Made by a program: the position numbers and the translations under genes. Source: an uncultured Verrucomicrobiota bacterium (lineage in GTDB: Bacteria; Verrucomicrobiota; Verrucomicrobiia; JABWAM01). From it: DNA of 64,000 nt. Where the stretch lies: positions 39,826-103,825 of the forward strand of contig CAZZBZ010000001.1 of the NCBI GenBank assembly GCA_964653025.1, written 5' to 3'. The notes beneath the pieces are model-generated. The model saw only the letters and a list, made by a program, of their open reading frames with translations. It was not told the DNA's origin and searched no databases. This document shows positions 34,293-57,693 of the stretch, one piece after another; the stretch's first letter is position 1; the number at the start of each line of letters is the position of its first letter.

Positions 34293-35339
34293 TCAGGGGA
34301 CCACCACCGGACGGTCGATCCAGAAAGGGAGCTGCATGCCGCGGCGGAAGGCGGCGAGGGATTTCGGCGAGGAGTTGATGCGGAGGTTACTCCAGGTCTC
34401 ATCGGCATTCTGCCAGCGTTCGTGCCAGTAGACCGCGGCCTTGAGGCGAGGATAGTCCCTCGGCATGCGGTCAAATGCCTCCTCGAAGAAGGCATCCTTA
34501 CTTCCCTGGTTTGGAAACTCCCCGACGCCCCACTCGGCAAACATGATTGGCTTGGTCGGGTGCAGTCTCACGATCTCGTCGTAGGGCATCCGCGCGACAT
34601 CCGTGAAGGTAAGCCAGCCTCCCTTGGAGTTTTGTTTTCCGTAAACACTGAGGCCAAGCCAGTCCACCACATCGTCCCCGGGGTAGTAGGTTTGTATGGT
34701 GTTCCACGAGGCGACCGGCCAGGAGTAGTTCTGGGCGTGGTAGACCCACTCCACGTTGCGGGCGCCCTCGGCGCGCACGATGCCGACGACTCGACGGTAG
34801 GCGGCGATAAAGCGTTCGGGGCCGTCGGCTTTCTTCGGGTCACCGAAGCGGCGGGTTTCCCCGCCGCCCTGCACGGGACCGCCCCACGGGAACCAGTCGC
34901 CGTTCATTTCGATCCCAAAGGCCACGAGGAGCGGGATGCGGGTCGCACGAGCCTTCCGCGCCCAGTCGCGGAGGTAAGCGTCGAACTTCCCCTCGATGAT
35001 CCGGTCGAGGGAATACTCGGGTTGGGGCTCGTTCTGGCGGTAGGGCGGCCCCCACGGCGACCAGAAGATGAGAGGGATGGCGTTTGCGCCCCGCACGACC
35101 TCGACCTGGGCGGAGGGAAATCCCTTCCGTCCCCAATAACTGGAAAAGGCGACGATCGCCTGGCGCCGCCCCGAAAGCTTCTCGAAGGCGGAGATGGTGG
35201 ACGGGGTCAGGTCGTCCTCGGCCTCGCCGAGATCCATGTAGGCGCCGACGTAGGCACCGCGCGGGGGGATGGCGAGGTGCTGGGCGAGAACCGCAAGCGT
35301 CGATGCAAGGAAGAGGATAAGGAAGGGAAGGCGTATCAT
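34293..35339 (-). CDS. Secreted glycoside hydrolase, GH26-like (clan GH-A), last gene of the EPS/exosortase cluster
   Basis: Signal peptide MIRLPFLILFLASTLAVLA. GAYVGAY ... ipLIfwspW ... GKFDAYLRDWA ... LLVAFGIEMNGDWFPWGG matches the GH26 core pattern (..R.gHE.NG.W.pWg). 4-bp overlap with the upstream synthase gene. Confidence 0.6.
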   Translation of the reverse strand: MIRLPFLILFLASTLAVLAQHLAIPPRGAYVGAYMDLGEAEDDLTPSTISAFEKLSGRRQAIVAFSSYWGRKGFPSAQVEVVRGANAIPLIFWSPWGPPYRQNEPQPEYSLDRIIEGKFDAYLRDWARKARATRIPLLVAFGIEMNGDWFPWGGPVQGGGETRRFGDPKKADGPERFIAAYRRVVGIVRAEGARNVEWVYHAQNYSWPVASWNTIQTYYPGDDVVDWLGLSVYGKQNSKGGWLTFTDVARMPYDEIVRLHPTKPIMFAEWGVGEFPNQGSKDAFFEEAFDRMPRDYPRLKAAVYWHERWQNADETWSNLRINSSPKSLAAFRRGMQLPFWIDRPVVVP

Positions 35340-38300
35340 GCGGGAGGGGAGTCTACGTGGACGGTGGCGGTGCGGGGGACTTTTCCCCAGGAAACCAGCG
35401 CCCCGCGAAGGGCGCGGCGGAAAGCGCCCCAGACGACGATGCAGAGGAGGGGGCGGTAGACGAATCGCTGGGGCAGGACCCAGAGGGCCCGGCGTATAGG
35501 TTCGCGGTCGAGTCGAAGGGCGAGCATGGCGAGGAGGGTATCCGAGAGGAGGAAGGCGAGGAGGAAGAGGAGGACAAGGCTGCCCCCGCCGCCGAGGACG
35601 GAGAGGATGACGAGCAGGTCCACGATAGGGGACATGGCGGTGAGAAGAACTTGAAAAAACCAGAGGCTGGGCATCGCGATCCAGCCAAGAGTGCCGGCGC
35701 GCGGGTTGAACAGGGCCTCACGGTGTTTCCAGAGGCATTGGAGGGTGCCGAAGGCCCAACGGAAGCGCTGGCGAAGGAGACCCTTCACCGTTTCCGGGCA
35801 CTCGGTCCAGCCGATGGCGCGATCCGCGTAGGCCACTCGCCAGCCATCCCTTCGGATTTGCATGGTGAGATCGGTATCCTCGGCGAGGGTGTCGGCGGTG
35901 AATCCGCCGGCTTTCGCGACGGCTTCGCGACGATAGGCACCAATGGCCCCCGGCACCACGGTGATGCAGTTGAGGAGGTCGAAGGCGCGGCGGTCGAGGT
36001 TGAAGCCCGAGGTGTATTCCAGGGACTGGAACTTCGCGAGCCAACGGCGGCGGTTGCCCACCCTGGCGTTTCCCGAGACCGCACCGACATTCGGATTGGC
36101 GAGGAGGGGTGGCACGAGGCGAGCCAGCGCACCGCGGCCGATACGGGTATCCGCATCGATGGAGACGAGAAGGTCGTAGCGGGCCGCGGCGATTGCGGCG
36201 CCCAGGGCACCCGCCTTACCGGTGTTTTGCTGGGAGATTCGGCGGACGCGCGGGTCAGTGGCGAAGGCGACGGAGATGACCACGGCGGTGGCGTCGGAGG
36301 AGCCATCGTCCACGACAACGACCTCGAGGGTACCCGGGTAACCACAGTCGAGGACTGCTCGGATCGCAGCCTCGATCACGCGTTCCTCGTTATAGGCGGC
36401 GATGACCACGCTCACAGGCGGGAAGGAGGACGGTGGCGGAAGCGGGGGTCGCCGTGCCTGCCAGAGCGCGAGGGCCGCGATGGCGAGGGAGCGCAGGATC
36501 ACGAGGATCGTGGCGACAATGAGAAAGGCCCAGATGAACTCGATGAAGCCATGGACAACCGAGAGGCCAAAGCTGGTGGCAAGGATGGTATGGCGCTCGG
36601 CATTCGGGGCCGGGGGCATCATCTGGTCGTGGGGTATGCCGGCGAGCTCGCTGGCGGTGACGAATCGCACGGGGCGATGGTGAGAGTCGCGCAGCCAGCG
36701 GATCATGGGACGCAGGGCCTCGACCGTCTGGCGGCGATCCCCTCCCCCATCGTGGAGGAGGACGACCGATCCCTCCGAACGGAGCTGCTGCACGCGTCGA
36801 AGGATTTCGGCGGTGCCGGGGCGCTCCCAGTCCCGGGGGTCGATGTTCTCGCAGAGGGTGAGATAACCGAGTTCCTGCGCGCGGAGGATGGGACGGATCT
36901 CGGCCATCGTCTGGGGACGCGAATCGGCGGAGTAAGGCGGGCGGAAGAGGATGGTCGAGCGGCCGGTGATCGACTCGATGAGCCGCTGCGTGGCATTGAG
37001 TTCGAGGTCAAGTTGGACGCGGGGGGTCTCCGAAAGGTCGGGGTGGGTGTAGGTGTGGACCCCGACCTCGTGCCCTTCACGGACCATGCGGACGAGAAGG
37101 TCGGGGTTTTTCTCGGCGGCGCTGCCGACGATGAAAAAGGTGGCCGTCACCCCCTCGGCCTTCAGGATATCGAGAATCTGTGGCGTCCAGTGGCGGTCGG
37201 GTCCGTCATCGAAGGTGAGGGCGATCCAGTTGGGGGAGACGATACCGCCGTGCTCGACGCGGAGGGGTTTCGGGGGATCGAGATAGCGGACGCGAACGCG
37301 ACCGGAGGGGAGGCGTTCAAAGGTGCGCAGGCCCGACTCACGCTCCGGGTGGATGCGGAGGATCTCTCCCTCGCCGACGTGGACGACTTCGTCGGGAAGC
37401 CTGATCCGGTTAAGAGGTTCCCAGTCGCTTTCCGAGGTCGCACGGCGGCGGGCGAGGACGAGGGCGTCCCACAGGGAGGGATCTTCATCACCGAGTTTCC
37501 AAACAGCGATGCCGGCAACGCCTGCGGAGCGGGCGGCGCGGACCTGGTTGAGGGCGGTGGCCGCGTCAAGGAACCAGACGGTGTGCTGTTCGTCGTCCTT
37601 CGCGTAGGAGAAAGTGGGGTTGCCCTCCTCCCCCGCCCAATCAATTCCCACGGGTTCAGCGCTGTCGGCGAGGCTCATGACCTCGGCAAAGGAGAGGTCC
37701 CTGCCCACAGGGCCGCCGAGAGGCCAATCGCACCCGAAGTTGCCGATGGCGGCAATCCACTGGCCGGGGCGACCAAACTCGAGCATTCGGTGGAGCCAGC
37801 GCTCGAACCATGGCTGCGAGGCGAGCGCACCGGGCGGGTCGTGGCGCGAGTTTTCGTTACAAAGCATCGCAATGAGGTAGTCGGCGTGCTCCACGAGACG
37901 GTCGAGGTCGAAGACGAGGGCGTCCCAGCCGACGGGGACGCAGATCATGAAGAGGAGGCCCTCCTCATGGCAGCGGGTGGCAAAACGGATGAGGAAGTCG
38001 TTGAAGGCATCGCTGTAGGAGGGATCGACCTCCTCGAAGTCCACGGCCAACCCCTCGCAGCGAGCGGATTTCACAAGACGAAGGGCCTTCTCAATAAATG
38101 CGGTGCGGTCAGCCTCGGGGCCGGTGACCAGTGCGGCCATGAGGTCCCCTCGCCACCCTTCAAACTCGTTCGTGAGCAGGGCAATGATCTTGAGGTCGTG
38201 CTGGTGGGCGAGGTGACGAGTCTCTGGTTCCGCGGCAAAGGCGAGGTCGAGGTTTTCGTTGGCGATCGTGATCCAGCGTGGGCAGAGGTGGGTAAGGTGG

Positions 38301-38699
38301 GGCGCCGCACGATCGAGCGCGGCGAGGGTGGAGGGGTTTTCCTCGGGAAGGAAACCGAGGGTGATGGGCTCCGGGGGACGGGGAAAGGCCGCACTCGCGG
38401 AACGCCGGCGATCTCGCTCCGCTGTGCCGAGCGAGTGGCGGAGGGCGGGGGTTTCACTGCGCCGCATCGCGCGGCGCGTATCCCGGAGGGGATGTTGGAG
38501 GCCGCGCAACTGGGAACGGAGGGTAGCGACCGAGGAGGGAAGGCGAAGGAAGGGTTGCTCGAGCAGCGAGCGCGCAAATAACAACGCAGCGGCAAAGAGG
38601 ACAAAGCACCCCAGGAGCGCCGCTACGCGGATGATCTTCCAGCGAAGGCCGCGGGCATCGTGGAAGATAAACTGGCGCGTGGGCGCGGGGACGGTCATC
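35336..38699 (-). CDS. Multidomain membrane polysaccharide synthase/modifier: N-terminal TM + GH18-like (chitinase-fold) domain + CE4 polysaccharide deacetylase (NodB) + processive GT2 synthase (QxxRW) + C-terminal TM bundle
   Basis: About 1121 aa from MTVPAPTRQF, followed by a TM helix. GH18-like block (GLAVDFEEVDP ... GIAVWKLGDEDPSLWD). CE4 block (IALTFDDGPDRHWTPQILDILKAEGVTATFFIVG ... HEVGVHTYTHP ... LLHDGGG). GT2 block (VSVVIAAYNEE ... VVVVDDGSSD ... SIDADT ... QRFRWAFG). Then multiple C-terminal TM helices. The ORF upstream of the chosen start would overlap the preceding gene by about 370 bp and is rejected. Confidence 0.75.
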
Positions 38700-38715
38700 T
38701 CGGGGGACGGAAAGC

Positions 38716-41289
38716 TCAGAACCACGTTCGACGGGAACGGGAGGAGGCGAGCCCGACGTCGTGGGCCGCGAGCTCCACGATCTGGGCCACGCGGTGGCGG
38801 AGTCGCGTGCTCGCCCAGAGGAGGGCGGTAAGCCAGACGGGGACAGCGCAGAACCAGGCGCCGATGAGGCGGTAGCCCTCGGGGGAGGTCGTGGCCTCGA
38901 ATCGGAGCCATGCGAGAAGGCTCAGGACGGCGACGGGGATCCCGACCATCCGCGAGAAGAGAGTGGGGATCGGGTGGAGGCGAATGCGGGTGAGGCGCTT
39001 GCCATCGCCATGTTCCTCGGTGAGGGAGAGGAGACGGACCTGCCACCATCGGTTGCCGTAGACCTGGTAGTCCCAGTTGGTCCAACCCGTGTCGGCGGAG
39101 TACTTCCAGCCCTCCTGGTCGAGGCGCTTCTTGAAGGAAGAGAGGAAATGCTCACGGCCCGAGCCAGAATCGCTCCAGAAGGTGAGCAGGGCGGGACGGT
39201 CCCATTTCACGACCTGGGCACTACTGGGAGCGGGGGCACCGACGATCTTGCGCGGGGTGCGTTTCTTGCGGACCCAGGTGGAGTAACGGGCCCAGCCTCG
39301 GGCGACCGGCTGCCAGAAGGCGAGGGCGGCAATGAGGAGGCGGCTCCACGGGCGGCGGTAGCGCGTCTCGATCCTCGCGCGGAGCGCATAGGAGACCGCG
39401 ATGCCAAGGGATCCGGCAAACATCGCGGCAGGGAGGTACCAGATCGCATGCACCTGCAGCGAGACGAGAAGGGCCGCGAGGGCCATGGCATTCCACTCAA
39501 GGCTGCCCATGAAGAGCACGACATCCGAGGTACGCCCGGGATAGACGCACTGGAAAAGGCCCATTCCAAAGACGCCATGGTAGATGATGGGACGGTGGAC
39601 GACAGAGGAGAAGTTGGCGCCGCCGTAGACGCGGCCGCGCCAGCGGGCGGAGCCGGTCGGCCCGAAGTAGACGAGGTGCTTAAAGCGGAGCAGGGCCTCG
39701 GCCTCGCCATAGCCCTCCTGCTGCTTGAGGTAGGCGCGGACATTGAAGCGGCGGTGATGCCAGACGATGGCGGAGGGGCTGAACCCGATGCGGTACCCCT
39801 GCTGCATGAGCCGCCAGCAGAGATCGACATCGTCGCCCGCCTTGCGGTATTCGGGATCGAAGCCGCCGACGAGATCGAGCGCCCACTTGTGGAAGGCCAT
39901 GTTGCAGCCGGGGATATGCTCGGCCTCCACGTCGTCGATGAGCACGTGGCTGGGCTGGCCCGGGGAGGCGGCAACGCAGGCCTGCACCCAGTTCCGCGCG
40001 GGGGGCGAGATATTCGGACCGCCAACGGAGGCAAAGCCTCCCTGATCGAGCGTGCCGACAAGATAGTAGAGCCAGTCCTTGTCTGCCATGCAGTCACTGT
40101 CGATGTAGGCGATGATCTCGCCGTGCGCGGCCTGCATTCCCACGTTGCGAGCCACGCTCAGGCCGAGGTTCTCTTGGTGGAGGTAGCGGACCTTGGAAAA
40201 CTCGCGGGCAATGGACTCCGTATTGTCGGTGGAGCCATCGTCCACGAGGAGGACCTCGAAGTCGGGATAGTCCATCTGGAGGAGAGAGGTGAGGCATGCC
40301 TCGAGCGTGCGAGCGCCGTTATAGGAGCAGACCACCACGGAGACCGGGGGGGTGCGCGGGAGGGGGACACGGGTGTTGCCCTCAAAAAGGGAGTGGACCC
40401 GGGCGAGGGCTTTTTTGGGCCTTCGATCCGCGCCCACGAGGCCGAACTTCCAGTCTTCGATGAGGTGCCCACCGGTGAACCACTCGTCGGTCCACGAGAA
40501 GAGGATTGTGCCAGCGAGGCCAAGGCGGGCGACCGCGCTGATGTGCCAGCCCAGCAGTTCAGCCTGTTCCTCCTCGGAGTGGCGCACGGTGTCCATGCCA
40601 AACTCGCTGATGATGAGGGGCTTCTCCCCGGCAAGGTTCTGCAGGCGGGCGAGGTAACCCTCGAAGTCCCGCTGGCGATGCAGGTAGACATTGTACGAGA
40701 AGAAATCCACGGCATTCGGCAGGAGGTACTCAGTGGGAGGATAGTTCGCGTAGGTGAGGAGCGGACGGGGGTCGGCTTGGCGGGCGGCGTCTACGAGATC
40801 CTCGAGGAAGGCCTCGACCTTTCGGGACCCGTACCAGCGGACGATGCTGGTCGGGATCTCGTTGCCCACCGCCCAGGCGAATAGCGCGGGATGGCCCCGT
40901 CGCTCGCGGGCGGCGCTCTCCACGCGACGGAGGATGGATCGGCGGCTCCGCCGCCCATCGAGGAAACAGACGTGCTGCTCCCATGGAATCGTGGCGTACG
41001 CCTTGAGCCCCGCACGCTCGCACTCGTCAAGGAACCAGACCGGAGGAGGGTGGTAAAGGCGGACCGTGTTGATGCCTGCCGCAGTCATCTGCGTGAAGTC
41101 GGCGCGCACCTTCGCGGGTTCCGGAAGGAATATGGGGGCGCCCCCCTCATCACGGGGCGGGAACGGCCCGTAAGTCACCCCCTTGACGAAGAACTTACGC
41201 CCGCCGTGGAAGAAAAACTTCGAGTTGGCGACGATGCGAGGGGCGCTCGTGCGAACGACTTCAACTTCGTCCATGGAATCCTGAGACAT
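38716..41289 (-). CDS. Fused glycoside hydrolase (clan GH-A TIM barrel) + family 2 glycosyltransferase with C-terminal membrane domain
   Basis: 857 aa. N-terminal GH-A block with acid/base FAWAVGNEIP and nucleophile LIISEFGMD. GT2 block PPVSVVVCSYNGARTLEACLTSLLQMDYPDFEVLLVDDGSTDNT ... YIDSDC. About 6 TM helices in the C-terminal 300 aa. Confidence 0.7.
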   Translation of the reverse strand: MSQDSMDEVEVVRTSAPRIVANSKFFFHGGRKFFVKGVTYGPFPPRDEGGAPIFLPEPAKVRADFTQMTAAGINTVRLYHPPPVWFLDECERAGLKAYATIPWEQHVCFLDGRRSRRSILRRVESAARERRGHPALFAWAVGNEIPTSIVRWYGSRKVEAFLEDLVDAARQADPRPLLTYANYPPTEYLLPNAVDFFSYNVYLHRQRDFEGYLARLQNLAGEKPLIISEFGMDTVRHSEEEQAELLGWHISAVARLGLAGTILFSWTDEWFTGGHLIEDWKFGLVGADRRPKKALARVHSLFEGNTRVPLPRTPPVSVVVCSYNGARTLEACLTSLLQMDYPDFEVLLVDDGSTDNTESIAREFSKVRYLHQENLGLSVARNVGMQAAHGEIIAYIDSDCMADKDWLYYLVGTLDQGGFASVGGPNISPPARNWVQACVAASPGQPSHVLIDDVEAEHIPGCNMAFHKWALDLVGGFDPEYRKAGDDVDLCWRLMQQGYRIGFSPSAIVWHHRRFNVRAYLKQQEGYGEAEALLRFKHLVYFGPTGSARWRGRVYGGANFSSVVHRPIIYHGVFGMGLFQCVYPGRTSDVVLFMGSLEWNAMALAALLVSLQVHAIWYLPAAMFAGSLGIAVSYALRARIETRYRRPWSRLLIAALAFWQPVARGWARYSTWVRKKRTPRKIVGAPAPSSAQVVKWDRPALLTFWSDSGSGREHFLSSFKKRLDQEGWKYSADTGWTNWDYQVYGNRWWQVRLLSLTEEHGDGKRLTRIRLHPIPTLFSRMVGIPVAVLSLLAWLRFEATTSPEGYRLIGAWFCAVPVWLTALLWASTRLRHRVAQIVELAAHDVGLASSRSRRTWF

Positions 41290-41306: not shown

Positions 41307-42611
41307 TCAGAGACGGACCCGATCCTTGAATGCGTTGATGCCCTTGATCAGGTCCACGGCGCGATCGAGTTGGACGTCACGCACGGGAGTTTTCTTGCTG
41401 CCATCAGGAAGGAACTCTTCGGGCTTGGGCTCGTCCTTCTTCGTGGGGTCGGCAGCCTGGCTGCGTTGGAGGAGGATCTGGTTCCACTCCTCGTCGCTCA
41501 TGGGGACGGCGATGTCGGGGGTGATCCCGTGCTCGTGGATGACCTTGCGGCTGGGGGTGTAGTACTTCGCGGTGGTGAGACGGATGGCACAGTTGCCCTT
41601 CACGGGGATCACGCTCTGGACGGAGCCCTTCCCGAAGCTGGTCTCGCCAACAATCACGGCGCGCCGGGTGTCCTGAAGGGCACCGGCCACGATCTCGGAG
41701 CCGCTGGCGCTGCCCTCGTTGATCAAGACGACGAGCGGATAGTCGGGGTGAGGCTTGGCAGAGCGGACGCGGTATTCCTGTTTCACGGCGGGATTGCGTC
41801 CCTCGGTAAAGACGACGAGGTCGCCCTTGGGAAGGAACTTGCCCGCGACGTCCACAGCGGAATCGAGAAGGCCGCCGGGATTATTACGCAAATCCAGGAC
41901 CAGGCCGTTGAGTCCGTCTTTTTCGAGCTTCTGCAGGGCCTTTTCGAATTCGTCGGCGGTGGGCTCGTTAAACTGGACGATGCGGACATAGCCAATCTTA
42001 CTCTCCATGACGCGGGCGTCCTTGACGCTCTCCACCTTGATCATGGCGCGGATAATCGGGATATCCTTCACCTCGCGGCTACTGGGGCGGAGAATGGTAA
42101 TCGTGACCTTGGTGCCCGGGACGCCGCGGAGCTGCTTGACGGCATCGCCGAGGGGCAGGCGGTCGGTGGACTTGCCCTCGATGCGGATGATCTTGTCGTT
42201 GGGGAGGAGCCCGGCCTTGAAACCGGGGGTGTCCTCCATGGGAGAGATGACCGTGAGGATGCCATCCTTCATCCCCACGACAACCCCGATGCCGCCGAAC
42301 TGGCCGCCCGTCTCCTGCTTCATCTCCTCGTAGCCGGTGGGCTCCATGAACTGGCTGTGGGGGTCAAGCCCGCCGAGCATTCCCTTGAGGGCGCTGTAAG
42401 TAAGGTCCTGGTAACTGAGTTTGGAGCCATCCACATAGTCCTTGCGGATGATTTCCATGACGCTCGTGAAGAGCTCGACGTTGCGGTAGGCGGACTCCTT
42501 CTCCTTGTCCTTGTCGTCCGCGGCCGCGGAGAGGGTCTGGACACGCCACCCGAGAACGAGATTTCCAAGGAGGAGGAGTAGGACCAGGAAGGCGGGCAAT
42601 CGTCGACGCAT
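41307..42611 (-). CDS. ctpA: Carboxyl-terminal processing protease (S41 family, CtpA-like) with PDZ domain
   Basis: Signal/TM N-terminus. PDZ (GIGVVVGMKDGILTVISPMEDTPGFKAGLLPNDKIIRIEG). S41 catalytic region (VLINEGSASGSEIVAGALQD ... GETSFGKGSVQ). Confidence 0.85.
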   Translation of the reverse strand: MRRRLPAFLVLLLLLGNLVLGWRVQTLSAAADDKDKEKESAYRNVELFTSVMEIIRKDYVDGSKLSYQDLTYSALKGMLGGLDPHSQFMEPTGYEEMKQETGGQFGGIGVVVGMKDGILTVISPMEDTPGFKAGLLPNDKIIRIEGKSTDRLPLGDAVKQLRGVPGTKVTITILRPSSREVKDIPIIRAMIKVESVKDARVMESKIGYVRIVQFNEPTADEFEKALQKLEKDGLNGLVLDLRNNPGGLLDSAVDVAGKFLPKGDLVVFTEGRNPAVKQEYRVRSAKPHPDYPLVVLINEGSASGSEIVAGALQDTRRAVIVGETSFGKGSVQSVIPVKGNCAIRLTTAKYYTPSRKVIHEHGITPDIAVPMSDEEWNQILLQRSQAADPTKKDEPKPEEFLPDGSKKTPVRDVQLDRAVDLIKGINAFKDRVRL

Positions 42612-42625
42612 GGGGATGGCGGGGA

Positions 42626-43585
42626 TCAAACCTTGTCTTTGAAGAAGTCGATGGTTTTCTGAAGGCCCTCGGCGAGTTGGACGCGGGGCTCCCAACCGAG
42701 AAGCTTCCTGGCGAGAGAGATATCGGGGCGGCGCTGCTTCGGGTCATCCACGGGGAGCGGTTTCTCGACAAGGGTGCTTCGGCTTCCGGTCACGCGGATG
42801 ATCTGCTCGGCAAACTGGCGGACGGTGAGCTCGGCGGGGTTGCCGATGTTGACGGGGCCGTGATGGGGCGAGGTCGCGAGGCGGAAGATGCCATCAATGA
42901 GATCGCTCGCGAAGCAAAAGCTGCGGGTCTGGGAACCGTTCCCGAAGATGGTGAGAGGTTCGCCGCGAAGGGCCTGGCCGATGAAGGCGGGAACGACACG
43001 CCCGTCGCGCAGGCGCATGCGGGGGCCATAGGTGTTGAAGATACGGACCACCTTGACGTCCACGCCATGGGCGCGGTGGTAGGCGAAAGTCATGGCCTCG
43101 GCGAAGCGCTTGGCCTCGTCGTAGACACCGCGCGGGCCGATCGGGTTCACGTTGCCCCAATAGTCCTCGGTCTGGGGGTGGACGAGCGGGTCGCCGTAGA
43201 CCTCGGAGGTGGAGGCGAGGATGAAGCGGGCGTTCTTGGAATGCGCGAGGCCAAGGGCCTTGTGGGTGCCGAGAGACCCGACCTTGAGGGTCTGGATGGG
43301 AAGCTCGAGGTAGTCGATCGGGCTGGCGGGGGAGGCGAAGTGGAAGATGAAGTCCACGGAGCCCGGGTAGAAAAGGTATTCGGTGACATCCTGATGGATG
43401 AAGCGGAAGTGGGAGTTGCCGGCGAGGTGGGCGATATTCTCGATGTTGCCGGTGATGAGGTTGTCGAGGGCGACGACAAAGTGGCCCTCGGCGAGAAGGC
43501 GATCGCAGAGGTGGGAGCCGAGGAAGCCGGCGCCTCCGGTGACGATGGAGACGGGATGCGCTTTGGAGGGAGTGGGATTGGTCAT
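42626..43585 (-). CDS. uxs: UDP-glucuronate decarboxylase (UDP-xylose synthase)
   Basis: [33 protein letters not shown] ... [40 protein letters not shown] ... [11 protein letters not shown] ... DGRVV ... GNGSQTRSF. Near-colinear with eukaryotic and bacterial UXS. Confidence 0.85.
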
Positions 43586-43598
43586 GGGGAAAGGGGGT

Positions 43599-44993
43599 TC
43601 AGCGGGCGCCAGCGCCCGTGAGAACCACAGGGATTGTTTTCATGAGGATTTTCAAGTCGAGCCAGAAACTCCAGTTGTCCACGTACTCGAGATCGAGGCG
43701 GGCCCACTCGTCGAAACTGTGGATGCGATTGCGGCCGCTGACCTGCCAGAGGCAGGCGAGGCCGGGTTTCACGCTGAGGCGGCGGCGGTGGTGGAGCTTG
43801 GAAATCTGATGGGTTTCATAGACCGGGAGGGGGCGTGGGCCGACGAGGCTCATCTCACCCTTCAAGACATTCCAAAATTGGGGGAACTCATCAATGCTGG
43901 TGCGGCGCAGGAATGCGCCGACGCGGGTAATACGGGGGTCCTTGCCGATCTTGAAGACGGGTCCGTCCATCTCGTTGAAGGCGACGAGCTCGGAGCGGAG
44001 CATATCGGCATTGGAGACCATGCTGCGAAACTTGAACATGCGGAACACGCGGCCGCGAAGGCCGCTCCGTTCCTGGACAAAGAAGATCGGGCCGCGGGAC
44101 TCAATGCGGATGGCGATCGCGGCGAGCGTCATGAGGGGAAGGGTCAGGATCAGGCTGAGGACGGAGACGGTAATGTCGAGCAGGCGCTTGGCAAGGAACT
44201 GCCAGAGGGAGGGATGCCTGGCAACGAAGAGGATGGTGGGGTGACCAAGAATCGTCTCGAAGCTGGCGGTCGCGAGGTGGGGTTTGAGGGCCTCGCTGAG
44301 GAGCCATGCCTCGACACCCTGAAGCTCGCAGATGGTTACGGCCTTTTGGATCCCCTCGAAGCCGGCGTGAGGAACGCGAAAGATGACGGCGCTGATCGGC
44401 TCGCGGTTGAGCCAGTCGGAGACGGAAGTCTCCAGGCTGTCGAGGATCGAGACCTCGCCCACGACGGTGAGGTTCATCTCGGTTTGCAAACAAATCTGCT
44501 CCCTCAGGGCAATCAGGTGCTCGGGGGAGCCGACGAGGAGAACGCCGGAGGGCGGGCTTTTGCCCTGAAAGAAGAAGTCGAGGACATCCCTGAGGAAGAA
44601 GTGGCGGAGAGAGATCAGGGCGAAACCGATTGCGGCAAAGAGGATCACCACGCCGCGGGCGAGGTTGCCCATCTTGAACATGAAGATGAGGAGGCCGCAC
44701 ATCAGCAGCAGCAGGAACATTGCCTGGCCAAGGCAGAAGAAGAAGGTGCCCGGCTTGTCGAGAAGACCCCTTCGGTAAACCAAGCAGGAATCGAGGATCA
44801 ACGGGCCGAGGATCACCACGAAGACCAGCAGAGGGGCAAATCCCTCGAAGGAGCTGATGCGCGGAAGATCCCATCCCGGCAGGTCGGAGGCACGGAAACG
44901 TAGACCGTGGCCGCCCCAGAGGGCGAACCCCAGCAGAACGCCGTCAGCGAGCTGGGAGAGGAGGCTGCGCAGTTCTTTTTGTTGCGAGAGCAT
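43599..44993 (-). CDS. Polyprenyl-phosphate sugar phosphotransferase (WbaP/EpsB-type 'bacterial sugar transferase'; exosortase-associated priming glycosyltransferase)
   Basis: N-terminal multi-TM region. C-terminal catalytic domain ... [26 protein letters not shown] ... [21 protein letters not shown]. Start at MLSQQ; the upstream extension is unsupported. Confidence 0.8.
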
Positions 44994-45001
44994 GGAGTTT
45001 T

Positions 45002-45694
45002 CTATCCCGTCGTCTTCTGAAAGAGGGGAACGGCCTGTTGGAGAAAACTCCGCAGAGCCTCCTCGGTTTCTTTCTCGCGTCCGGGAGGCGGGTTCACAAT
45101 CAGGGCCACGTACGCCCAACGGTGATGCACGTTGAAGAAGATGCGGTCGAAGGCCGTCCAGAGCACGCGGTTCAGGTGGCGCGGGGTGAGGCGGTTCTTG
45201 CCCACGAACCAGTAGCAGTACCAGTTGCGGGAGGAAACCGATCTCCCATCGGGCGCCTTCCCCTCCCGCGAGATCACGAGGCGCATCAGGTCGAGGTTGT
45301 ACACGCGGGGAGAGGACATCGGCACGCGGAGGAGGCCTCCCTGGCTAAGGCGCCAGCCCTGGCCGACAAGGCAGGCCTCGGCGGCATGGATGCTGGAGCG
45401 GTCGCGCCCGCTCAGGACGAGCCCGAGGAAGATCTCCCGCCCTTTCGGGTCGCGGTAGACCTTGCGGGCGAACTCGGTATCCGCACCGAGATAGTCGCGT
45501 TCGATCTGGGAGACGGGGGCGTCCTGGCCAACCCAGTCGCCAATTCGTGTGGGGAGTTGCATCGAGACCCCCGCGATGGCCTCGGCCGCCACGTCGGTGG
45601 TCTTGAGCGTGACGGCGAGGGTGGCGAGCACCAGCGCGATGAGGATCGCGGTCAGTGCGAGGGGATGGGATGGGCCCCGTGGGGAGAGTTTCAT
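45002..45694 (-). CDS. epsI: EpsI-family exosortase-associated protein
   Basis: 230 aa. Single N-terminal TM (LALTAILIALVLATLAVTL), then a periplasmic domain. Positioned immediately downstream of the exosortase, as in XrtA/EpsH-EpsI systems. Confidence 0.65.
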   Translation of the reverse strand: MKLSPRGPSHPLALTAILIALVLATLAVTLKTTDVAAEAIAGVSMQLPTRIGDWVGQDAPVSQIERDYLGADTEFARKVYRDPKGREIFLGLVLSGRDRSSIHAAEACLVGQGWRLSQGGLLRVPMSSPRVYNLDLMRLVISREGKAPDGRSVSSRNWYCYWFVGKNRLTPRHLNRVLWTAFDRIFFNVHHRWAYVALIVNPPPGREKETEEALRSFLQQAVPLFQKTTG

Positions 45695-45703
45695 GAGGGC
45701 GGG

Positions 45704-46858
45704 TCAGGGCTTGGTGACAGGGGTGGACTGGGGCAGCCGCTGGGGAAGGGCGGCGAGGAAACGCACCTTCGCGACGGCATAGTCGGCGTTAATCAAACGG
45801 CTGACTCCGACGAGAAGCAGGACGACCACGAGGAAGATGAGGAAGCCGAACCACTCGTGGACCACGTTTCCGGCCTTCTGACCAAAGCACTGGGCGGCGA
45901 TGATGATCGAGGTGATGCGGACGATGTTGCCGGCCACGGCGAGAGGGAGGCCCGAGAGGCAGAGCACAATCTTCTTCCACGCTTCCCGCTGGGTCACGTA
46001 GCCGTAAATAAGCGAGAGCATGATAATCGCTGTGAGCGAGCGGATCCCGCTGCAGGCCGGGGCGACGTCGTACTGGTAGGCCCCGGTGGGGTCGAAGATG
46101 CGGGTGCCGTCGCGCATCACGCCGATCCCGAGGGCCTGGCCGATGTCGGTGGAGACGATCGTCACCAGCATGCGCATCGGGAAGGCGACGAGCGTTTCGA
46201 GGAAGTTCATGGGGATCATGAACACGAGAAAGGCAAACGGAAAAGCCATGGCCCGGGCCCTGCGAAACCCCTGCAGGCACACGACAAGGGACCAGAGCAG
46301 GAGGAGGAGGGCGAGGACGCTGGCGCGCGGGATCTGCCCGCGCATCCCCATCCAGTGGAGGAGGAGGGCAAAGAGGGCGGGGATGAGGCCCCGCGAGTCG
46401 GGGGCGGCGGGGCATTCGAGGATGGCCTTGCGGTTCCACCAGAGCAGGCCGAGCGAGATGAACGGGACGAGGGGGCCGTGGGAGCTGTCGTAGATGGGGT
46501 CGTTCCAGGCGATCCAGAGCCAGTTGAAGAGGGAGGTGCCGAATTTACTGACCCAGATGCTATTTCCCGCCTTAAAAAACAGCAGGGAGACGCATCCCAG
46601 CAGGACCATCGCCAGCCAGAAGCTCGCGCGACGAAGGCGTCGAGGCAGATCGGCGAGCGCAGCGACTTCCCGCAGGAAAGAGGAGAGTTCGGCGCGAAAG
46701 TGCCAAGCAGCGGCCGCGAGCCCGGCGAGCACAACCAGGATGACCGACGGGTTGGATGCGCCCCCTTCCACTTGCGCGGCATCCCCTGCCGCGAAGAGCG
46801 GGGAGACGGTCCCGAGGAGGGACAGGATGACCGACGGGAGGTATCTGCGACGGCTCAT
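45704..46858 (-). CDS. Exosortase (Xrt/EpsH family transmembrane transpeptidase)
   Basis: 8-TM protein with conserved exosortase motifs ... APACSGIRSL (active-site Cys) ... NIVRITSIIIAA (Arg) ... 384 aa. Confidence 0.8.
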   Translation of the reverse strand: MSRRRYLPSVILSLLGTVSPLFAAGDAAQVEGGASNPSVILVVLAGLAAAAWHFRAELSSFLREVAALADLPRRLRRASFWLAMVLLGCVSLLFFKAGNSIWVSKFGTSLFNWLWIAWNDPIYDSSHGPLVPFISLGLLWWNRKAILECPAAPDSRGLIPALFALLLHWMGMRGQIPRASVLALLLLLWSLVVCLQGFRRARAMAFPFAFLVFMIPMNFLETLVAFPMRMLVTIVSTDIGQALGIGVMRDGTRIFDPTGAYQYDVAPACSGIRSLTAIIMLSLIYGYVTQREAWKKIVLCLSGLPLAVAGNIVRITSIIIAAQCFGQKAGNVVHEWFGFLIFLVVVLLLVGVSRLINADYAVAKVRFLAALPQRLPQSTPVTKP

Positions 46859-46888
46859 GCAAATGTCTGGCGTGGATTCATGTTTGGG

Positions 46889-49402
46889 TCAGTTCGCTCC
46901 CGCGTGCTCTGCCTGCAAGCGGCGGAGACGCTCCTCGGCCTCGGTGCGGCAGGGGAGCTTGGCATCGATCATTCGACGCAAAACCCGTGCCGCCCCGCGC
47001 CAATCCTTCTGGCTCTCCAGGATCCGCTCGGCTTCGAGCCCACCGCGGCAGATCCAGTAGAACTCACGACCCTCGGGGGTCCCACTCGGGGCAGGCTTCT
47101 CATACAGCGGAGCGAGGTGACTTTCCAGCGCCTTTGTAAGGTCGCCCATCGTTTCCCAGGTCTTCCCCATCTCGACGAGGGCCTGGTTGCGAAGGGCGGC
47201 ATCGGCTTTGGGAGAATCGAGGACCGTCTTGAAGGCGGCAAGCGCTTCCTCGTTGCGCTTGAGTTGGCGCAGGCACTGGCCGCGACGGCCCTGCGCCTCG
47301 ATTACCCGCTCGGGGAGTGGCTGAGGCTTGCCGGTCTCGACAGGCTTGACGAGATCCTCAAAGACTTTGAGGGATTCCTGGAACTTGCCGCGCTCCGCGA
47401 GGATGTCGCCGTAAAGAAACCACGCTTCGGGGACCCAGGGCGAATCGGGGTAATCCTTCACGAGCGCCTCGATGAGGCGCCGCGCATCGTCCCTGGCCTG
47501 CCCGAGGCGATGGGCGGCGCGCGCGGCAAAGTAGGTGGCCTCCGGGGCCAGCGGGTGAGCGGGGGCGTTTTTTCGAAGGAGCTCGAACTGCTCCTGGGCC
47601 TTCGCGTGATTGCGAGCGCGATCGTACCAGGCCCCGAGCCAGAACTGCGCCTCGATGGCGGCGGGGGAACGCGGGAAGGCCCGTACGACGCCCTCGAACT
47701 CGGCGACCGCCTTTTCGGGGGACTCGGTATGTTCCATGCAATGCGCACGGACGAGCATGGCGCGGGGAGCGAGATCGTGCTTGGGAAACCTTTCGAGAAA
47801 GGTCGAGGCGGCCTCGGAACCTTCCTTCACCCTTCCGATCGCGTGAAGCGTCTCGGCGTAATCGAGCCATGTGCGGGGAGCGATGGGGGAGTTGGGAAAC
47901 TGGTCGAGGAGGGCGCGGAGCGCCTCCGCGGCCTTCGTGGGTTGTCCTTGGCGGCGGGAGGCGTCCGCTGAGAGAAGAAGAAACTCGGCGCCAAGGCGTC
48001 CGGAGGGGAAGGCGGCAGTGTGTGCGGCTTGAAGGCGGGCCACCTCGGCGGGCTTTCCCGCACGAAGCCACGCACTCGCCCCCTGGTAAAGCGCCTGCTC
48101 GGGCACAGCAGGGTCGATGCCCTTGACCTGCGCGGCCTTCGCAAAGGCGTCGGCCGCGGCCTCGAACTGCTGGCGCTCCATATTGAGGTCGCCGATCTTC
48201 AGCAATGCCTCCGCCTGCACCTGCGGGGTGCGCGCGCGGTCGGCGGCCTTCTGAAACTCAGAGGCGGCAGACTCGAACTTCTTGTCCTCGAGGAAGACCC
48301 ATCCAAGCTGGAGGTGGGCCTGGTCGTTCCATGCGCCGTTGGGATACTTCTCGAAGAAGTCCTGAAAGGCCTGGATCGCTTGATCGCGACGATCGGCGCG
48401 CTTCCAGAGGACACCGACCTGAAGGAAGAGCGCCTCACCAAAAGAGGTCCCCTTCGCCTCGCCTGCCCACTCGGCAAGGCGGTCGGCGAGCACGCGCGGT
48501 TTGTCGAGCTTGAGATAGGCCCCGGTCAGGGCGTCGACGCAGCGGAGGCGGAATGAGGAATCGGTGCTGGTGCGGAAGGCTTGCTCATATTGGGCGGCGG
48601 CCGCGGCCTGATTGCCGGCGGCGGCCTCAATCTCGCCGAGACGCAAGCGCGCAAGGGGAGCAATGCTGCGAGCCTCGGGATTCTCCGATTTTGCGATGGA
48701 CTCAAAGCGGGCGCGCGCCGACTCGGTCAGTTTACGTTCCAACTCGACCTCCCCGAGGGAGAGGGCGGCCTGGAAGCCGATGCCGCTTTTTGCCTCCTCC
48801 TTCGCGAGGCGGCCGAGGACCTGCGCGGCCTCGTCGTACTTCTTTTGCTGGGCAAGGCAGGTGCCGAGGGAGAGGGTGGCCTGCGCGGCAATGTCCTTGC
48901 GGGATTCCTTTTGCAGGGCACGGAACATCTCCTGGGCGGCATCGAACTTGCGGTCGAGCGCCAGGGCGCGCGCCATCCCGTAGCGCGCCTCCGGCAGATA
49001 ACGGCTCTTCGGGAAGTTTTTGGAGAAGGCCTCAAACGTCTTTGATGCGGCCTCGCCGAGCCCCCCCCGCAACTGGGCCTCGCCCAAGAGCAGGGAGAGG
49101 CCGTCCTGCCATTCGGGGCTGGAGGAGGGAAGAACCGATTCGATCGCAAGCTGTGCCCCCTGCCAGTCGCCGGCATTGAGGCGGGCCCGGGCGAGGAGCC
49201 AGGAACCCTCATCCCGCGCCTCCGATTGAGGAAACTGGGTGAGGAGCTTCTCGAACTGCGCGGCGGCCACCTCGTTCAGATGGTCCTCAAGCGCCTTGCG
49301 CCCGAACGCGATCAGGCGCTTTTCCTCTTTCGAAAGGTCGGCGTGCGCCACCGTGGCCAGCGAGGCCACCGCGAGGAGCAGAGCAAAGAATGCGCAGTTC
49401 AT
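46889..49402 (-). CDS. Large secreted TPR-repeat protein (PrsT-like PEP-CTERM-system TPR protein)
   Basis: 837 aa. Signal peptide [21 protein letters not shown], then about 20 TPR-like repeats throughout. Located directly upstream of the exosortase, as PrsT is in PEP-CTERM/EPS loci. 4-bp overlap with uvrA. Confidence 0.55.
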   Translation of the reverse strand: MNCAFFALLLAVASLATVAHADLSKEEKRLIAFGRKALEDHLNEVAAAQFEKLLTQFPQSEARDEGSWLLARARLNAGDWQGAQLAIESVLPSSSPEWQDGLSLLLGEAQLRGGLGEAASKTFEAFSKNFPKSRYLPEARYGMARALALDRKFDAAQEMFRALQKESRKDIAAQATLSLGTCLAQQKKYDEAAQVLGRLAKEEAKSGIGFQAALSLGEVELERKLTESARARFESIAKSENPEARSIAPLARLRLGEIEAAAGNQAAAAAQYEQAFRTSTDSSFRLRCVDALTGAYLKLDKPRVLADRLAEWAGEAKGTSFGEALFLQVGVLWKRADRRDQAIQAFQDFFEKYPNGAWNDQAHLQLGWVFLEDKKFESAASEFQKAADRARTPQVQAEALLKIGDLNMERQQFEAAADAFAKAAQVKGIDPAVPEQALYQGASAWLRAGKPAEVARLQAAHTAAFPSGRLGAEFLLLSADASRRQGQPTKAAEALRALLDQFPNSPIAPRTWLDYAETLHAIGRVKEGSEAASTFLERFPKHDLAPRAMLVRAHCMEHTESPEKAVAEFEGVVRAFPRSPAAIEAQFWLGAWYDRARNHAKAQEQFELLRKNAPAHPLAPEATYFAARAAHRLGQARDDARRLIEALVKDYPDSPWVPEAWFLYGDILAERGKFQESLKVFEDLVKPVETGKPQPLPERVIEAQGRRGQCLRQLKRNEEALAAFKTVLDSPKADAALRNQALVEMGKTWETMGDLTKALESHLAPLYEKPAPSGTPEGREFYWICRGGLEAERILESQKDWRGAARVLRRMIDAKLPCRTEAEERLRRLQAEHAGAN

Positions 49403-52335
49403 GGTTTCAGGGGTGCGGCGGCCGCGGCGCCGGCCGCCGGCAACCCGGTGCGACGCTTCAGCTTCGGTGCGAGGTGTCGTCCCGTGTGGGAATCGGGACA
49501 GGCTGCCACGGCCTCGGGGGTCCCGGCGACTACGATCTGGCCTCCCGCGTCGCCCCCCTCGGGTCCAAGGTCGATCACCCAGTCGGCCGACTGGATGACA
49601 TCGAGATTGTGCTCGATGACGAGCAGGGTGTTGCCGGTCGAGCGAAGGCGCATCAACACCTCGAGGAGCTTCTCGATGTCGGCGAAGTGGAGCCCCGTCG
49701 TTGGCTCGTCAAGGATGTAGAGGGTGCGTCCGGTCGAGCGGCGGGCCAACTCGGCGGCGAGTTTCACGCGCTGGGCCTCGCCGCCGGAAAGGGTGGTCGC
49801 CTGCTGCCCGAGGTGGAGGTAGCCGAGCCCGACCTCCCCGAGGACCGAGAGAGATTCGCGGAGGGAGGGGATGCCACGGAAAAACTCGATCGCCTCGTCC
49901 ACCGTCATATTCAGCACTTCAGCGACGTTGCGCCCCTTGTAAGTGACCTCGAGGGTTTCACGGTTGTAGCGTTGGCCGCGGCAGGCCTCGCACTCCACGT
50001 AGACGTCGGGCAGAAAATGCATCTCAATCTTGAGGATGCCGTCGCCGCTGCAGCGTTCGCAGCGGCCGCCGCGCACATTGAAGCTGTAGCGCCCCGGGCC
50101 GTAGCCGCGCACCTTCGAGGCAGGAAGGGCGGCGAAGAGGTCACGAATCAACCCGAAGGCGCCGGTGTAGGTGAGGGGGTTGGAGCGCGGGGTGCGACCA
50201 ATCGGGGACTGGTCAATAACGATCACCTTGTCGAGAAACTCCGATCCCTCGATGCGCTCGTGCTTGCCGGGACGCTCCTTCGAACCGTGAAACTGGCGTT
50301 GGAGGGCGCGCCGCAGGATATCGTCCACGAGGGTGCTCTTCCCCGATCCGCTCACCCCGGTCACGCAGGTGAGGAGCCCGAGTGGAATCTCGGCGGTGAT
50401 GCCCTTGAGGTTATTCTCGCGGGCACCGACGACGCGAAGCCATTTGTCCTGCGGGTGAATGCGGCGGCGTGGCGCGACGAGGCCGATCTCGCCCGAGAGG
50501 TAGCGTCCGGTGAGCGAGCGGGGATTGGCAAGCACCTCGGCCACCGTGCCCTCGGCCACGAGTTCCCCGCCGTGAACGCCAGCACCGGGGCCGAGGTCCA
50601 CCACGTGGTCGGCGGCGCGGATCGTCTCCTCATCATGCTCGACGACAATCACGGTGTTGCCCAGGTCCCGCAGACGGGTGAGGGTGCCGAGCAGGCGCTG
50701 ATTGTCGCGTTGGTGGAGGCCGATGGAGGGCTCGTCGAGAACGTAGATGACGCCGGAGAGGCGGGATCCGATTTGGGTGGCAAGCTTGATGCGCTGCGCC
50801 TCCCCACCGGAGAGGGTGGCGCTCTCGCGGTCGAGGGTGAGGTAGCCGAGGCCAACCTCATCGAGAAACTCGATGCGGGAGGTCACCTCGCGGAGGGCCT
50901 GCCGGGCGATGGCCTGCTGTTGGGGGTCGAGGGCCAGCCCCGCAAAAAAGCGGAGCGCGTCGCGCACGGAGAGGCGGGAGAGGTCGATGATGGACCTGTC
51001 GCCAAGGGTGACGGCGAGGCTCTCGCGCTTGAGGCGGGCGCCGTTGCAGGTGCCGCAGTGTTGGAAAGTCTGGTACCCTCGGAGGCGTTTCCGGGTGAAC
51101 TCGCTCGCGGTTTCGGTGAGGAGCCGTTGGAGCTGGGGGATGACCCCCTCGAAGGGCTTCGCGATCGCGTGAGGTTTCCCGTTGCGGGTCATCTTGAAGG
51201 TGACCTCCTGTCCGCTCGTGCCATGGAGAATCGCGGTATGCGCTGCCTCGGGGAGAGACTTCCAAGGGGTATCCATGTCGGCGCCAAGGTGCGCGCAGAC
51301 GCTGCGGAGGAGCATCTTGTAGTAGGCGATGAGGCGTCTCCCCCCGCGTCGCCAGGGCTGAACCGCGCCATCGTTCACGCTCTTCTCAGGATCGGGAACG
51401 ACAAGGTCTGTGTCGAAGATCATCTCCTGACCGATCCCGTGGCAGGCAGGACAGGCCCCGTAGGGGCTGTTGAAGGAGAAGTGGCGCGGAGTGAACGCGC
51501 CGAGGCTGATGCCGCAGGCGACGCAGGCGTTCATCGTGCTGTGGAGCGCTTCGTCCCAGGGCGCGCCGTTGCTGGCGGCCCCGTTCTTCGGGGTCGGGCG
51601 GGTGAGGGCAAGGAGAATGCCCTGGCCCCACTGGAGCGAGGTTTCCACGGACTCGGCGATGCGGGAGCGGAAGCGCGGGTCGCACGGGAGGCGGTCCACG
51701 ACCACCTCGATGTCGTGGTTGCGGGATTTGTCGAGGAGGAGGGTCACCCCGTGGCGGTCGAAGATCCGATCCATCTCGTGCATCTCGCCGTCCACGCGCA
51801 CGCGGACAAAACCCTGGTTGCGGACCCTTTCGAGGACATCGCGAAACTCCCCTTTTTTCCGCTGTACGAGCGGGGCGAGAAGCATGAGTTGCTGGCCCGC
51901 GACGTTGGTAAGGATGCGGTCCACGATATCCTGCGGGGTCTGGGTGTGGATCGACTTGCCGCACTTCGGGCAGTGGGGCTGGCCGATGGCGGCGTAGAGG
52001 AGGCGCAGGAAGTCGAAGATCTCGGTGGTCGTGGCGATCGTGGAGCGGGGATTTGACCCGGAGGAGCGTTGCTCGATCGCGATCGCGGGGGAAAGGCCCT
52101 CGATGAAATCCACGTCCGGCTTTTGCATCTGGTCGAGAAACTGGCGGGCGTAGGCCGAGAGGCTTTCGACGTACTTGCGTTGCCCCTCGGCAAAGATCGT
52201 GTCGAAGGCCAACGAGGACTTCCCGCTCCCGCTGAGACCGGTGACGACAACGAGGCGGTTCCTCGGGATCCTCAGGGAGAGGTTCTTAAGGTTGTGCTGC
52301 CGCGCGCCCCCGATGCTGATGCACTCCTGCTCCAT
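49399..52335 (-). CDS. uvrA: Excinuclease ABC subunit A
   Basis: 978 aa. Two ABC ATPase modules ([14 protein letters not shown] ... / [11 protein letters not shown] ...). Zn-finger CxxC pairs. LSGGEAQR signature motifs. Confidence 0.95.
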
Positions 52336-55404: not shown

Positions 55405-55429
55405 CGGCGGCAGTGGGCGCGAAAGGCGA

Positions 55430-56914: not shown

Positions 56915-56939
56915 GTTCGAATGAAGTTGAGAAATTTGG

Positions 56940-57689: not shown

Positions 57690-57693
57690 AATC

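Follow-up and report, generated by a model that had tools for sequence, protein, structure and literature searches.

A Verrucomicrobiota-wide fusion of a GH157-like hydrolase domain and a family 2 glycosyltransferase, a candidate membrane-anchored synthase with its own processing domain

The window analysed here, a 64,000-nucleotide stretch of contig CAZZBZ010000001.1 from an uncultured Verrucomicrobiota bacterium, encodes on its minus strand an 857-aa polypeptide in which a clan GH-A glycoside hydrolase (GH) domain is followed by a family 2 glycosyltransferase (GT2) domain and a membrane anchor (38716..41289, delimited by translation, Pfam and third-position GC). The open reading frame (ORF) begins with ATG and fills the whole interval in the ORF listing of the window and in the translation. 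Its third-position GC of 0.83 fits the 65% GC of the window, supporting a real gene, and homologues run to thousands, among them P0001 at 98% identity. Reading the same interval on the plus strand was rejected because that frame holds a stop. The first-pass annotation had placed a hydrolase-transferase fusion at 38716-41289; the fusion was borne out by the real ORF and by Pfam and motif matches to both enzyme types that lie well outside chance expectation. The gene is on the minus strand, not on the plus strand that the bare coordinates suggest.

The N-terminal domain (aa 15-300; 40390..41247, minus strand) was assigned to clan GH-A as a GH157-like (β/α)8 barrel. Pfam detected a GH2-type TIM barrel at aa 60-236 (E 3e-10) and a GH72 glucanosyltransferase match at aa 19-83 (E 2e-6), both above the gathering score, and the AlphaFold2 model places a β/α barrel at aa 19-302, the (β/α)8 fold expected of clan GH-A. 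Translation located the motif VGNEI at aa 141-145 and the motif ISEFG at aa 227-231. The predicted acid/base, N143-E144 at the end of β4 (40858..40863, minus strand), aligns with the NE pair of GH2 and GH157 enzymes, and the predicted nucleophile, E229 on β7 (40603..40605, minus strand), aligns with the SEYG motif of GH2 and with E224 of LaGH157, the residue mutated in the E224A crystal form 9g4n; both positions were checked by translation. A single-sequence phmmer search against the PDB also matched NE to the acid/base motif and SEFG to the nucleophile motif of GH2 glucuronidases. With a profile of the domain (A4), the top PDB match was the Labilibaculum antarcticum GH157 endo-β-1,3-glucanase (9fz9, E 5e-20 over ~260 residues), followed by GH2 (5e-13), GH158 (2.6e-10) and GH72 (1.5e-6) enzymes. 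Despite this best profile score the identity to GH157 is only 18-19%, and GH2 and GH5 enzymes score almost as high as the GH157-type relatives. The domain carries no signal peptide, its barrel ends at about aa 300 and the GT2 domain begins at aa 310, so that the secreted layout of ~530 aa typical of GH157 is absent.

Conservation of the putative active site was counted in 150 representatives of clusters formed at 50% identity. N200 is present in all 150, E144 in 148 of 149, E229 in 145 of 146, N143 in 144 of 149, R77 in 134 of 136 and W270 in 132 of 137; Y202 is kept in 129 of 150, with Phe in 20 more. These seven residues are therefore retained at 86-100% across clusters that share 33-50% identity and, judged by alignment, R77, N143-E144, N200, Y202, E229 and W270 make up the classical, complete GH-A set of the retaining type. 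The catalytic residues are conserved as well in two alignments of homologues, A1 (close) and A2 (distant). Retention of this predicted constellation argues for catalysis over mere binding. An earlier reading of the two motifs as intact, with NEI as acid/base and ISEFG as nucleophile, agrees with these counts for both Glu residues and with the alignment of N143-E144 and E229 to their GH2 and GH157 equivalents; in the hidden Markov model searches the N-terminus matches glycoside hydrolase families in Pfam, and its catalytic residues are conserved.

The GT2 catalytic domain (aa 310-540; 39670..40362, minus strand) matches PF00535 at aa 317-425 (E 1e-33) and PF13641 at aa 314-524, with GT2 models together spanning aa 314-625, and the AlphaFold2 model shows a GT-A domain at aa 316-540. 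The domain combines the GT-A fold with a DxD motif and a nucleotide-binding DDG. Three motifs, D350-D351-G352, D397-x-D399 and AGDDVDxCWR, are invariant in the alignment of close homologues (A1) and at least 90% conserved in that of distant ones (A2). The DxD metal and nucleotide-sugar motif reads D397-S-D399 (40093..40101, minus strand; translation-checked) and, together with the PF00535 match, upholds the DxD-type GT2 annotated behind the hydrolase. Within AGDDVDxCWR (484-493), G485-D486-D487 (39829..39837, minus strand) is a candidate catalytic-base motif of the TED-like kind, a role drawn from general knowledge of GT2 enzymes. The top curated NCBIfam GT2 model is MftF TIGR03965, with 162.9 bits over aa 309-539 against an equivalog cutoff of 280. 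The PgaC, NodC, CelA and ArnC models score far lower for this domain; PgaC/IcaA TIGR03937 gives 96 bits for the ORF against a cutoff of 422, and the gene downstream, with 211 bits, also falls under that cutoff. None of the curated NCBIfam models reaches its own cutoff for the 857-aa protein, and Pfam coverage is limited to generic GT2 and GH2_C/GH72 models. The domain resembles polymerising GT2s that use sugar acceptors; the polyprenyl-phosphate sugar synthases (DPMS, GtrB and ArnC) are not its closest relatives among GT2s in sequence or structure.

A Kyte-Doolittle scan found four hydrophobic helices (~590-612, 615-636, 777-797 and 806-828) and no hydrophobic segment at the N-terminus or between the catalytic domains; before aa 589 it detected just one helix, which is buried in the barrel. 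Two AlphaFold2 models, one of the full length (predicted local distance difference test [pLDDT] score of 76.8) and one of aa 300-857 (pLDDT 75.1), agree on a transmembrane (TM) hairpin, an amphipathic helix, an α/β insert and a second TM hairpin after the GT-A domain. Hydropathy and both models thus give four TM helices in two hairpins, not the six-TM C-terminal domain first annotated. Hairpin 1 consists of TM1 (~590-612) and TM2 (~615-636) (39382..39522, minus strand; model helices 597-612 and 618-637), and hairpin 2 of TM3 (~777-797) and TM4 (~806-828) (38806..38961, minus strand; hydropathy and model). Between them, the amphipathic or interface helix at aa 647-675 (39265..39351, minus strand; hydropathy and model) is flanked by Arg/Lys clusters and contains Q660, P661, R664, G665, R668 and Y669, all invariant in close homologues. 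It is followed by a Trp-rich α/β insert of ~80 aa with modelled strands and a helix (aa 695-775; 38965..39207, minus strand), which is predicted to be cytoplasmic and in which W705, R712, W728, D733, G735, W736, W739 and D740 are invariant in close homologues. The insert, rich in Trp and Asp and containing the sequence EGWKYSADTGWTNWDYQVYGNRWW, is 23% identical across the family though well conserved among close homologues; Pfam has no family for aa 695-775, and the insert looks like a small carbohydrate-binding module. The segment ahead of the first hairpin (aa 541-588; 39526..39669, minus strand) is disordered in both models, with a pLDDT of ~30-45, and is nevertheless highly conserved, with H571, G572, G575, G577, F579, Q580, Y583 and P584 invariant in close homologues; it might act as a flexible gate or interface loop where the GT2 domain meets the membrane.

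Arg/Lys clusters come after TM2, the amphipathic helix and TM4, and by the positive-inside rule every soluble part of the 857-aa protein is predicted to face the cytoplasm. The GH-A domain should likewise be cytoplasmic, since neither a signal peptide nor a TM helix precedes the GT2 domain, which uses nucleotide sugars. Family-wide identity amounts to 41% in the GH-A domain and 51% in the GT2 domain compared with 16-22% in the TM parts, which fits TM helices that serve as an anchor rather than as a conserved channel.

Homologue searches indicated that the fusion is no peculiarity of the window. A search with the full protein returned at least 8000 matches at E<=1e-10, of which the best 120 are all 791-921 aa long with 88-100% coverage. 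When the GH domain alone was used as query, 442 clusters at 50% identity were found (E<=1e-30), or 1420 with the threshold relaxed to E<=1e-10, and a GT2 domain is present in each of the 68 GH-domain representatives of at least 780 aa. The combination of hydrolase and transferase, called unusual at first, is hence the standard architecture of a phylum-wide family whose members carry no annotation beyond "glycosyltransferase". Matches with a named source are nearly all from Verrucomicrobiota (Verrucomicrobiae, Chthoniobacterales, Terrimicrobiaceae, Udaeobacter and Verrucomicrobiales) and include the cultured Chthoniobacter flavus Ellin428 (locus L081) and the isolate BCK34; for distant representatives, the names and taxonomy of the clusters gave no information. 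A second homologue search, started from a 34%-identical member, returned a clade that is likewise Verrucomicrobial and in which Pfam no longer detects the GH domain. Three homologues at 51-52% identity (L016, L065 and L070) come from metagenome-assembled genomes (MAGs) labelled "Candidatus Limnocylindria", "Aliarcobacter sp." and "Akkermansia muciniphila"; as all three resemble sequences from Chthoniobacterales, mis-binning or mislabelling may account for these names rather than a true taxonomic spread. A tblastn search against plasmids gave matches to the GT2 domain only. Some members carry additional modules: P0139 has an additional N-terminal GT2, P0143 and P0145 have an NHL-repeat β-propeller C-terminal to the TM region, and P0156 (1421 aa) joins GH-A, GT2 and an ATP-binding cassette (ABC) exporter in one chain.

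A search with the pattern AGDDVDxCWR recovered 599 loci, and we further compared the surroundings of the gene. Homologues at 66%, 58%, 54% and 34% identity sit among housekeeping genes, and the gene is usually solitary. Clustering of flanking ORFs from 83 loci revealed no universal partner and chiefly phylogenetically local synteny, with an aminotransferase in 23 loci, QueA in 20 and a GT-C protein in 16; scattered ABC ATPases occur near homologues without positional conservation. Two kinds of neighbour touch the gene directly. The first is a polytopic protein of ~440 aa whose gene directly adjoins the 3' end and in many cases overlaps it; it occurs in 17 of the 84 loci fetched and in 16 of the 73 that were clustered. 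Of four members checked against Pfam, two exceed the cutoffs for GT87 or PMT, and a GT-C fold is assigned on that basis. Examples of this neighbour, whose N-terminal loop reads PSDELFRYQWEG, lie at L008:4810-6132, L011:10580-11935 and L023:10477-11859, with 13-14 more loci. The second is an ABC_membrane/ABC_tran half-transporter gene that overlaps the 3' end in L005, L063, L065, L074 and L086 and scores best as MsbA (437-458 bits, below cutoff), then as NdvA-type glucan exporters (346-358 bits). In two of these loci (L005:10391-13398 and L086:8547-11491) the fusion gene, the MsbA-like half-transporter and a gene for a 394-aa protein form an overlapping trio; the 394-aa protein gives a weak Glyco_trans_1_2 match in L005 (E 0.00097, below cutoff), and for its L086 counterpart there is neither a recorded Pfam match nor an NCBIfam match. 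In L063, L065 and L074 the ABC gene alone was seen beside the homologue. The overlap with the ABC gene at five loci, together with the P0156 fusion, points to a separate exporter. Neither a GT-C gene nor an MsbA-like exporter was found in the window.

On this evidence we favour, with a probability of about 0.4, a membrane-anchored, cytoplasm-facing protein of a Verrucomicrobiota-wide family that is a self-contained synthase and processing enzyme, its GH-A domain acting on the chain made by its GT2 domain. The reading builds on complete GH-A and GT2 active sites that lie on one chain, are joined by a short linker without a membrane segment and are conserved across the phylum. In the proposed mechanism, the GT2 domain would use a nucleotide sugar to synthesise or lengthen a β-linked oligo- or polysaccharide at the inner face of the membrane, and the GH-A domain would attack this chain through a glycosyl-enzyme intermediate on E229. 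The chain would then be handed to water or to another hydroxyl, resulting in release, length control, branching or cyclisation; for this processing step, transglycosylation appears the more attractive option than hydrolysis. The four TM helices would hold the enzyme at the membrane and form no channel, and export or onward use would be left to separate proteins that vary by lineage: in some an MsbA-like ABC exporter, in others a GT-C transferase, and in others nothing encoded nearby. The operon of the window, with its PgaC-like/CE4 synthase and GH26-like hydrolase, would be a recent pairing that the family function does not need. The best current guess for the product is a β-glucan, because GH157, GH158 and GH72 enzymes act on β-1,3-glucan and MftF makes β-1,4-gluco-oligomers. 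The first-pass annotation had proposed a transglycosylase or branching enzyme, or a trimming activity; transglycosylation or chain processing is still the most plausible role, while the polymer of the neighbouring synthase was not sustained as its target.

Several points weigh against this synthase-and-processing reading. Substrate and linkage are read from remote relatives (18-20% identity to GH157), the topology of the 857-aa protein is a prediction, and hydrolysis and transglycosylation are indistinguishable from sequence. The conserved, unmodelled segment 541-588 could contribute to membrane passage. No biochemical characterisation of any family member was found in the literature searched, and searches for 9FZ9, LaGH157 and GH-GT2 fusions returned no paper on the family. 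Moreover, the GT-C genes directly downstream in 17 loci and the MsbA-like exporter point to a lipid-linked product, and these pointers suit a soluble-glucan picture of the Cgs/NdvB kind less well.

The main rival explanation, which we consider rather unlikely, takes up this last point. It holds that the GT2 domain glycosylates polyprenyl-phosphate or another membrane lipid, either once, as GtrB, ArnC and DPMS do, or with a short chain; an MsbA/PglK-like ABC protein would then flip the glycan, and a periplasmic GT-C enzyme would take the flipped glycan as donor. In such a route the GH-A domain would serve cytoplasmic editing or recycling, or a β-glycosyl phosphate would be its activated donor for transglycosylation. 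The GT-C gene 3' of the fusion in 17 of 84 loci, with two of four members passing GT87 or PMT cutoffs, speaks for it, as does the higher score of the ABC partner as MsbA (437-458 bits) than as an NdvA-type exporter (346-358 bits). DPMS is also among the sequence and structure matches, and archaeal DPMS has the same layout, with two TM hairpins after a GT-A domain.

A second rival would tie the gene to its surroundings in the window. Upstream in the same minus-strand run lies an exosortase-type block (43599-49402) that encodes a TPR protein (46889-49402), an XrtA-like exosortase that scores under cutoff (45704-46858), a DUF3485/EpsI protein (45002-45694) and a polyprenyl glycosylphosphotransferase, that is, a priming sugar transferase (43599-45119); it is followed by an epimerase (42626-43585) and an S41 C-terminal processing protease (41307-42695), all on the minus strand. 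UvrA (49399-52335, minus strand) lies directly upstream of the block. Farther away, the minus-strand genes at 53524-58629 encode an ABC ATPase, an ABC-2 permease, a GldG-like ABC_transp_aux protein and a DUF4340 protein, which resemble a gliding-motility-type ABC system and are unrelated to the fusion gene. Downstream of the fusion gene, a CE4/GT2 synthase of 1120 aa (35336..38698, minus strand; assigned from Pfam, NCBIfam and topology) consists of an N-terminal TM helix, a GH18-like region (weak, E 5e-5), a CE4 deacetylase domain (E 5e-34), two TM helices, a PgaC/IcaA-like GT2 domain and a C-terminal TM region, with the GH18-like and CE4 parts predicted to be extracytoplasmic. Its start is the ATG at 38698, not 38699, and the gene extends to 35336. 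A mechanically called ORF with a TTG start (35336..39085) was rejected, as it overlaps 38716..41289 by 370 nt and the ATG at 38698 sits 17 nt past the stop of the fusion gene. The last gene of the trio (34293..35339, minus strand), whose start overlaps the stop of the CE4/GT2 gene, encodes a GH26-like protein with a signal peptide (Pfam E 4e-11; no NCBIfam family matched), probably a periplasmic or secreted hydrolase belonging to the CE4/GT2 synthase.

The fusion protein could accordingly be an accessory of the PgaC-like/CE4 synthase in an exosortase-linked exopolysaccharide (EPS) locus, acting in branching, in trimming as quality control or in priming; we regard this as improbable. The fusion gene is separated by 17 nt from the S41 peptidase gene upstream and by 17 nt from the synthase gene downstream, and a promoter and terminator scan around it found nothing beyond background, with terminator-like sites no commoner than in shuffled sequence. 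These gaps and site frequencies fit one operon and point to co-transcription. The trio of GH-A/GT2, CE4/GT2 and GH26-like genes is also retained in L003, an 82%-identical Verrucomicrobiae MAG, but there its upstream genes are unrelated and include no exosortase. In tblastn searches of the window neighbour proteins against the 84 fetched loci, the CE4/GT2 and GH26-like genes appeared only in L003; no copy of either was detected within up to 8 kb on each side (less at contig ends) in 80 other Verrucomicrobial genomes, and none near six further homologues looked up singly. The CE4/GT2 synthase is thus a co-operonic, lineage-specific neighbour and no conserved partner, and the earlier tie to the EPS locus and its synthase does not extend beyond this one close relative. 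Trimming of the synthase polymer was not supported either: the GH-A domain is predicted to be cytoplasmic, whereas the polymer emerges outside, where the GH18-like and CE4 domains of the synthase itself and the GH26-like protein with its signal peptide are the natural periplasmic trimmers. The nearest relatives of the GH domain, in addition, target β-glucans and not polymers of N-acetylglucosamine. Finally, a catalytically silent GH-A domain, acting as a carbohydrate-binding or ruler module that keeps the acceptor or growing chain in place for the GT2 domain, is very improbable: non-catalytic GH-like modules occur in other systems and activity in this family is predicted from sequence, but retention of both Glu residues, the Asn, R77, N200, Y202 and W270 at 86-100% is a pattern unexpected for binding alone.

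A broader formulation of the synthase-and-processing reading, which we put forward tentatively and hold doubtful as a whole, describes a core glycan synthase of a new type present throughout the phylum, in which the cytoplasmic, retaining GH157-like enzyme is an obligatory catalytic partner of the GT2 on a possibly lipid-linked β-glucan and the export partners are interchangeable; the GH157-like step could be, for example, cyclisation, branching or en-bloc transfer. If true, the "GT + GH" design would have arisen a third time, independently of NdvB and Cgs, and the family would open a way to a conserved envelope glycan of Verrucomicrobiota, a major phylum of soil and freshwater. The intact fusion across the named orders, mostly lone among housekeeping genes, suggests a basic envelope or periplasmic glycan. 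For the window itself the message is negative: calling the gene an accessory to the neighbouring EPS synthase would require experimental support.

Few synthases that fuse GH and GT domains are known, namely NdvB, which makes cyclic β-1,3-glucan, and Cgs, which makes cyclic β-1,2-glucan, and in these the GH module sets the architecture of the product. NdvB, the pseudomonad "Orphan" cyclic β-1,3-glucan synthase (PA1163), combines GH17 with a BcsA-like GT2 and is proposed to work by GT2 synthesis of a chain that the GH then cleaves and transfers (PMC10237404). The 857-aa protein resembles it as a single chain of ~860 aa in which an N-terminal clan GH-A domain, akin to β-1,3-glucan-active enzymes, is followed by GT2 and TM parts; NdvB, however, has a signal peptide and keeps its GH domain in the periplasm, separated from the GT2 by a TM region (PMC10237404). 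These features and the GH17 domain are absent here, and in place of a BcsA-like multi-TM translocation channel the present protein has two TM hairpins of four helices in all, 16-22% identical across the family. The hyaluronan synthases (HAS) and BcsA likewise differ by their N-terminal TM helices and conserved channel, both lacking in the 857-aa protein. The minimal cellulose-synthase-like or polymerising GT2s PcManGT (6YV7), K4CP (2Z86), hyaluronan synthase (8SMM/8SNC) and GlfT2 (4FIX) share 15-26% identity, and none has a GH domain. MftF, a cytoplasmic GT2 that iteratively adds a short β-1,4-glucan (cellulose-like oligoglucose) chain (PMC7491314), provides the best-scoring curated GT2 model at 163 bits, but this score lies far under 280, no mycofactocin genes are nearby and MftF has no GH domain.

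On the hydrolase side, the GH157 enzymes (LaGH157, PDB 9FZ9/9G4N/9G5G, and BcellWH2_01931) are catabolic proteins of Bacteroidota, ~530 aa long, cell-surface or secreted and with an extra C-terminal region, whereas here the barrel alone is present, at 18-19% identity, fused to GT2 and predicted to be cytoplasmic. The three-component systems of periplasmic glycosylation (a GtrB/ArnC/CsbB GT2, a flippase and a GT-C) resemble the present family in that a GT-C gene succeeds the membrane GT2 at 17 loci. Cgs (ChvB/NdvB of Agrobacterium, Sinorhizobium and Brucella) is a cyclic β-1,2-glucan synthase of ~2,800 aa with cytoplasmic GT and GH-type domains (GT84, a cyclisation domain and a GH94 phosphorylase) on one membrane protein, and its product is exported by the adjacent type-I ABC half-transporter ChvA/NdvA. 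The present family is similar in its cytoplasmic GT and GH domains on one membrane protein and in the ABC gene that adjoins it in five loci and is fused in P0156; it differs in that its GH157-like and GT2 domains show no kinship to Cgs in sequence or fold and in that its exporter scores better as MsbA than as ChvA. By these comparisons the family is analogous to NdvB and Cgs and may work like them, but it lacks their defining features and is a member of neither. The principle of a GH-GT synthase fusion is thus known, and what is new is the combination: a GH157-like GH family, a different type of GT2, a topology in which both domains are predicted to be cytoplasmic, and a housekeeping-like spread throughout the phylum.

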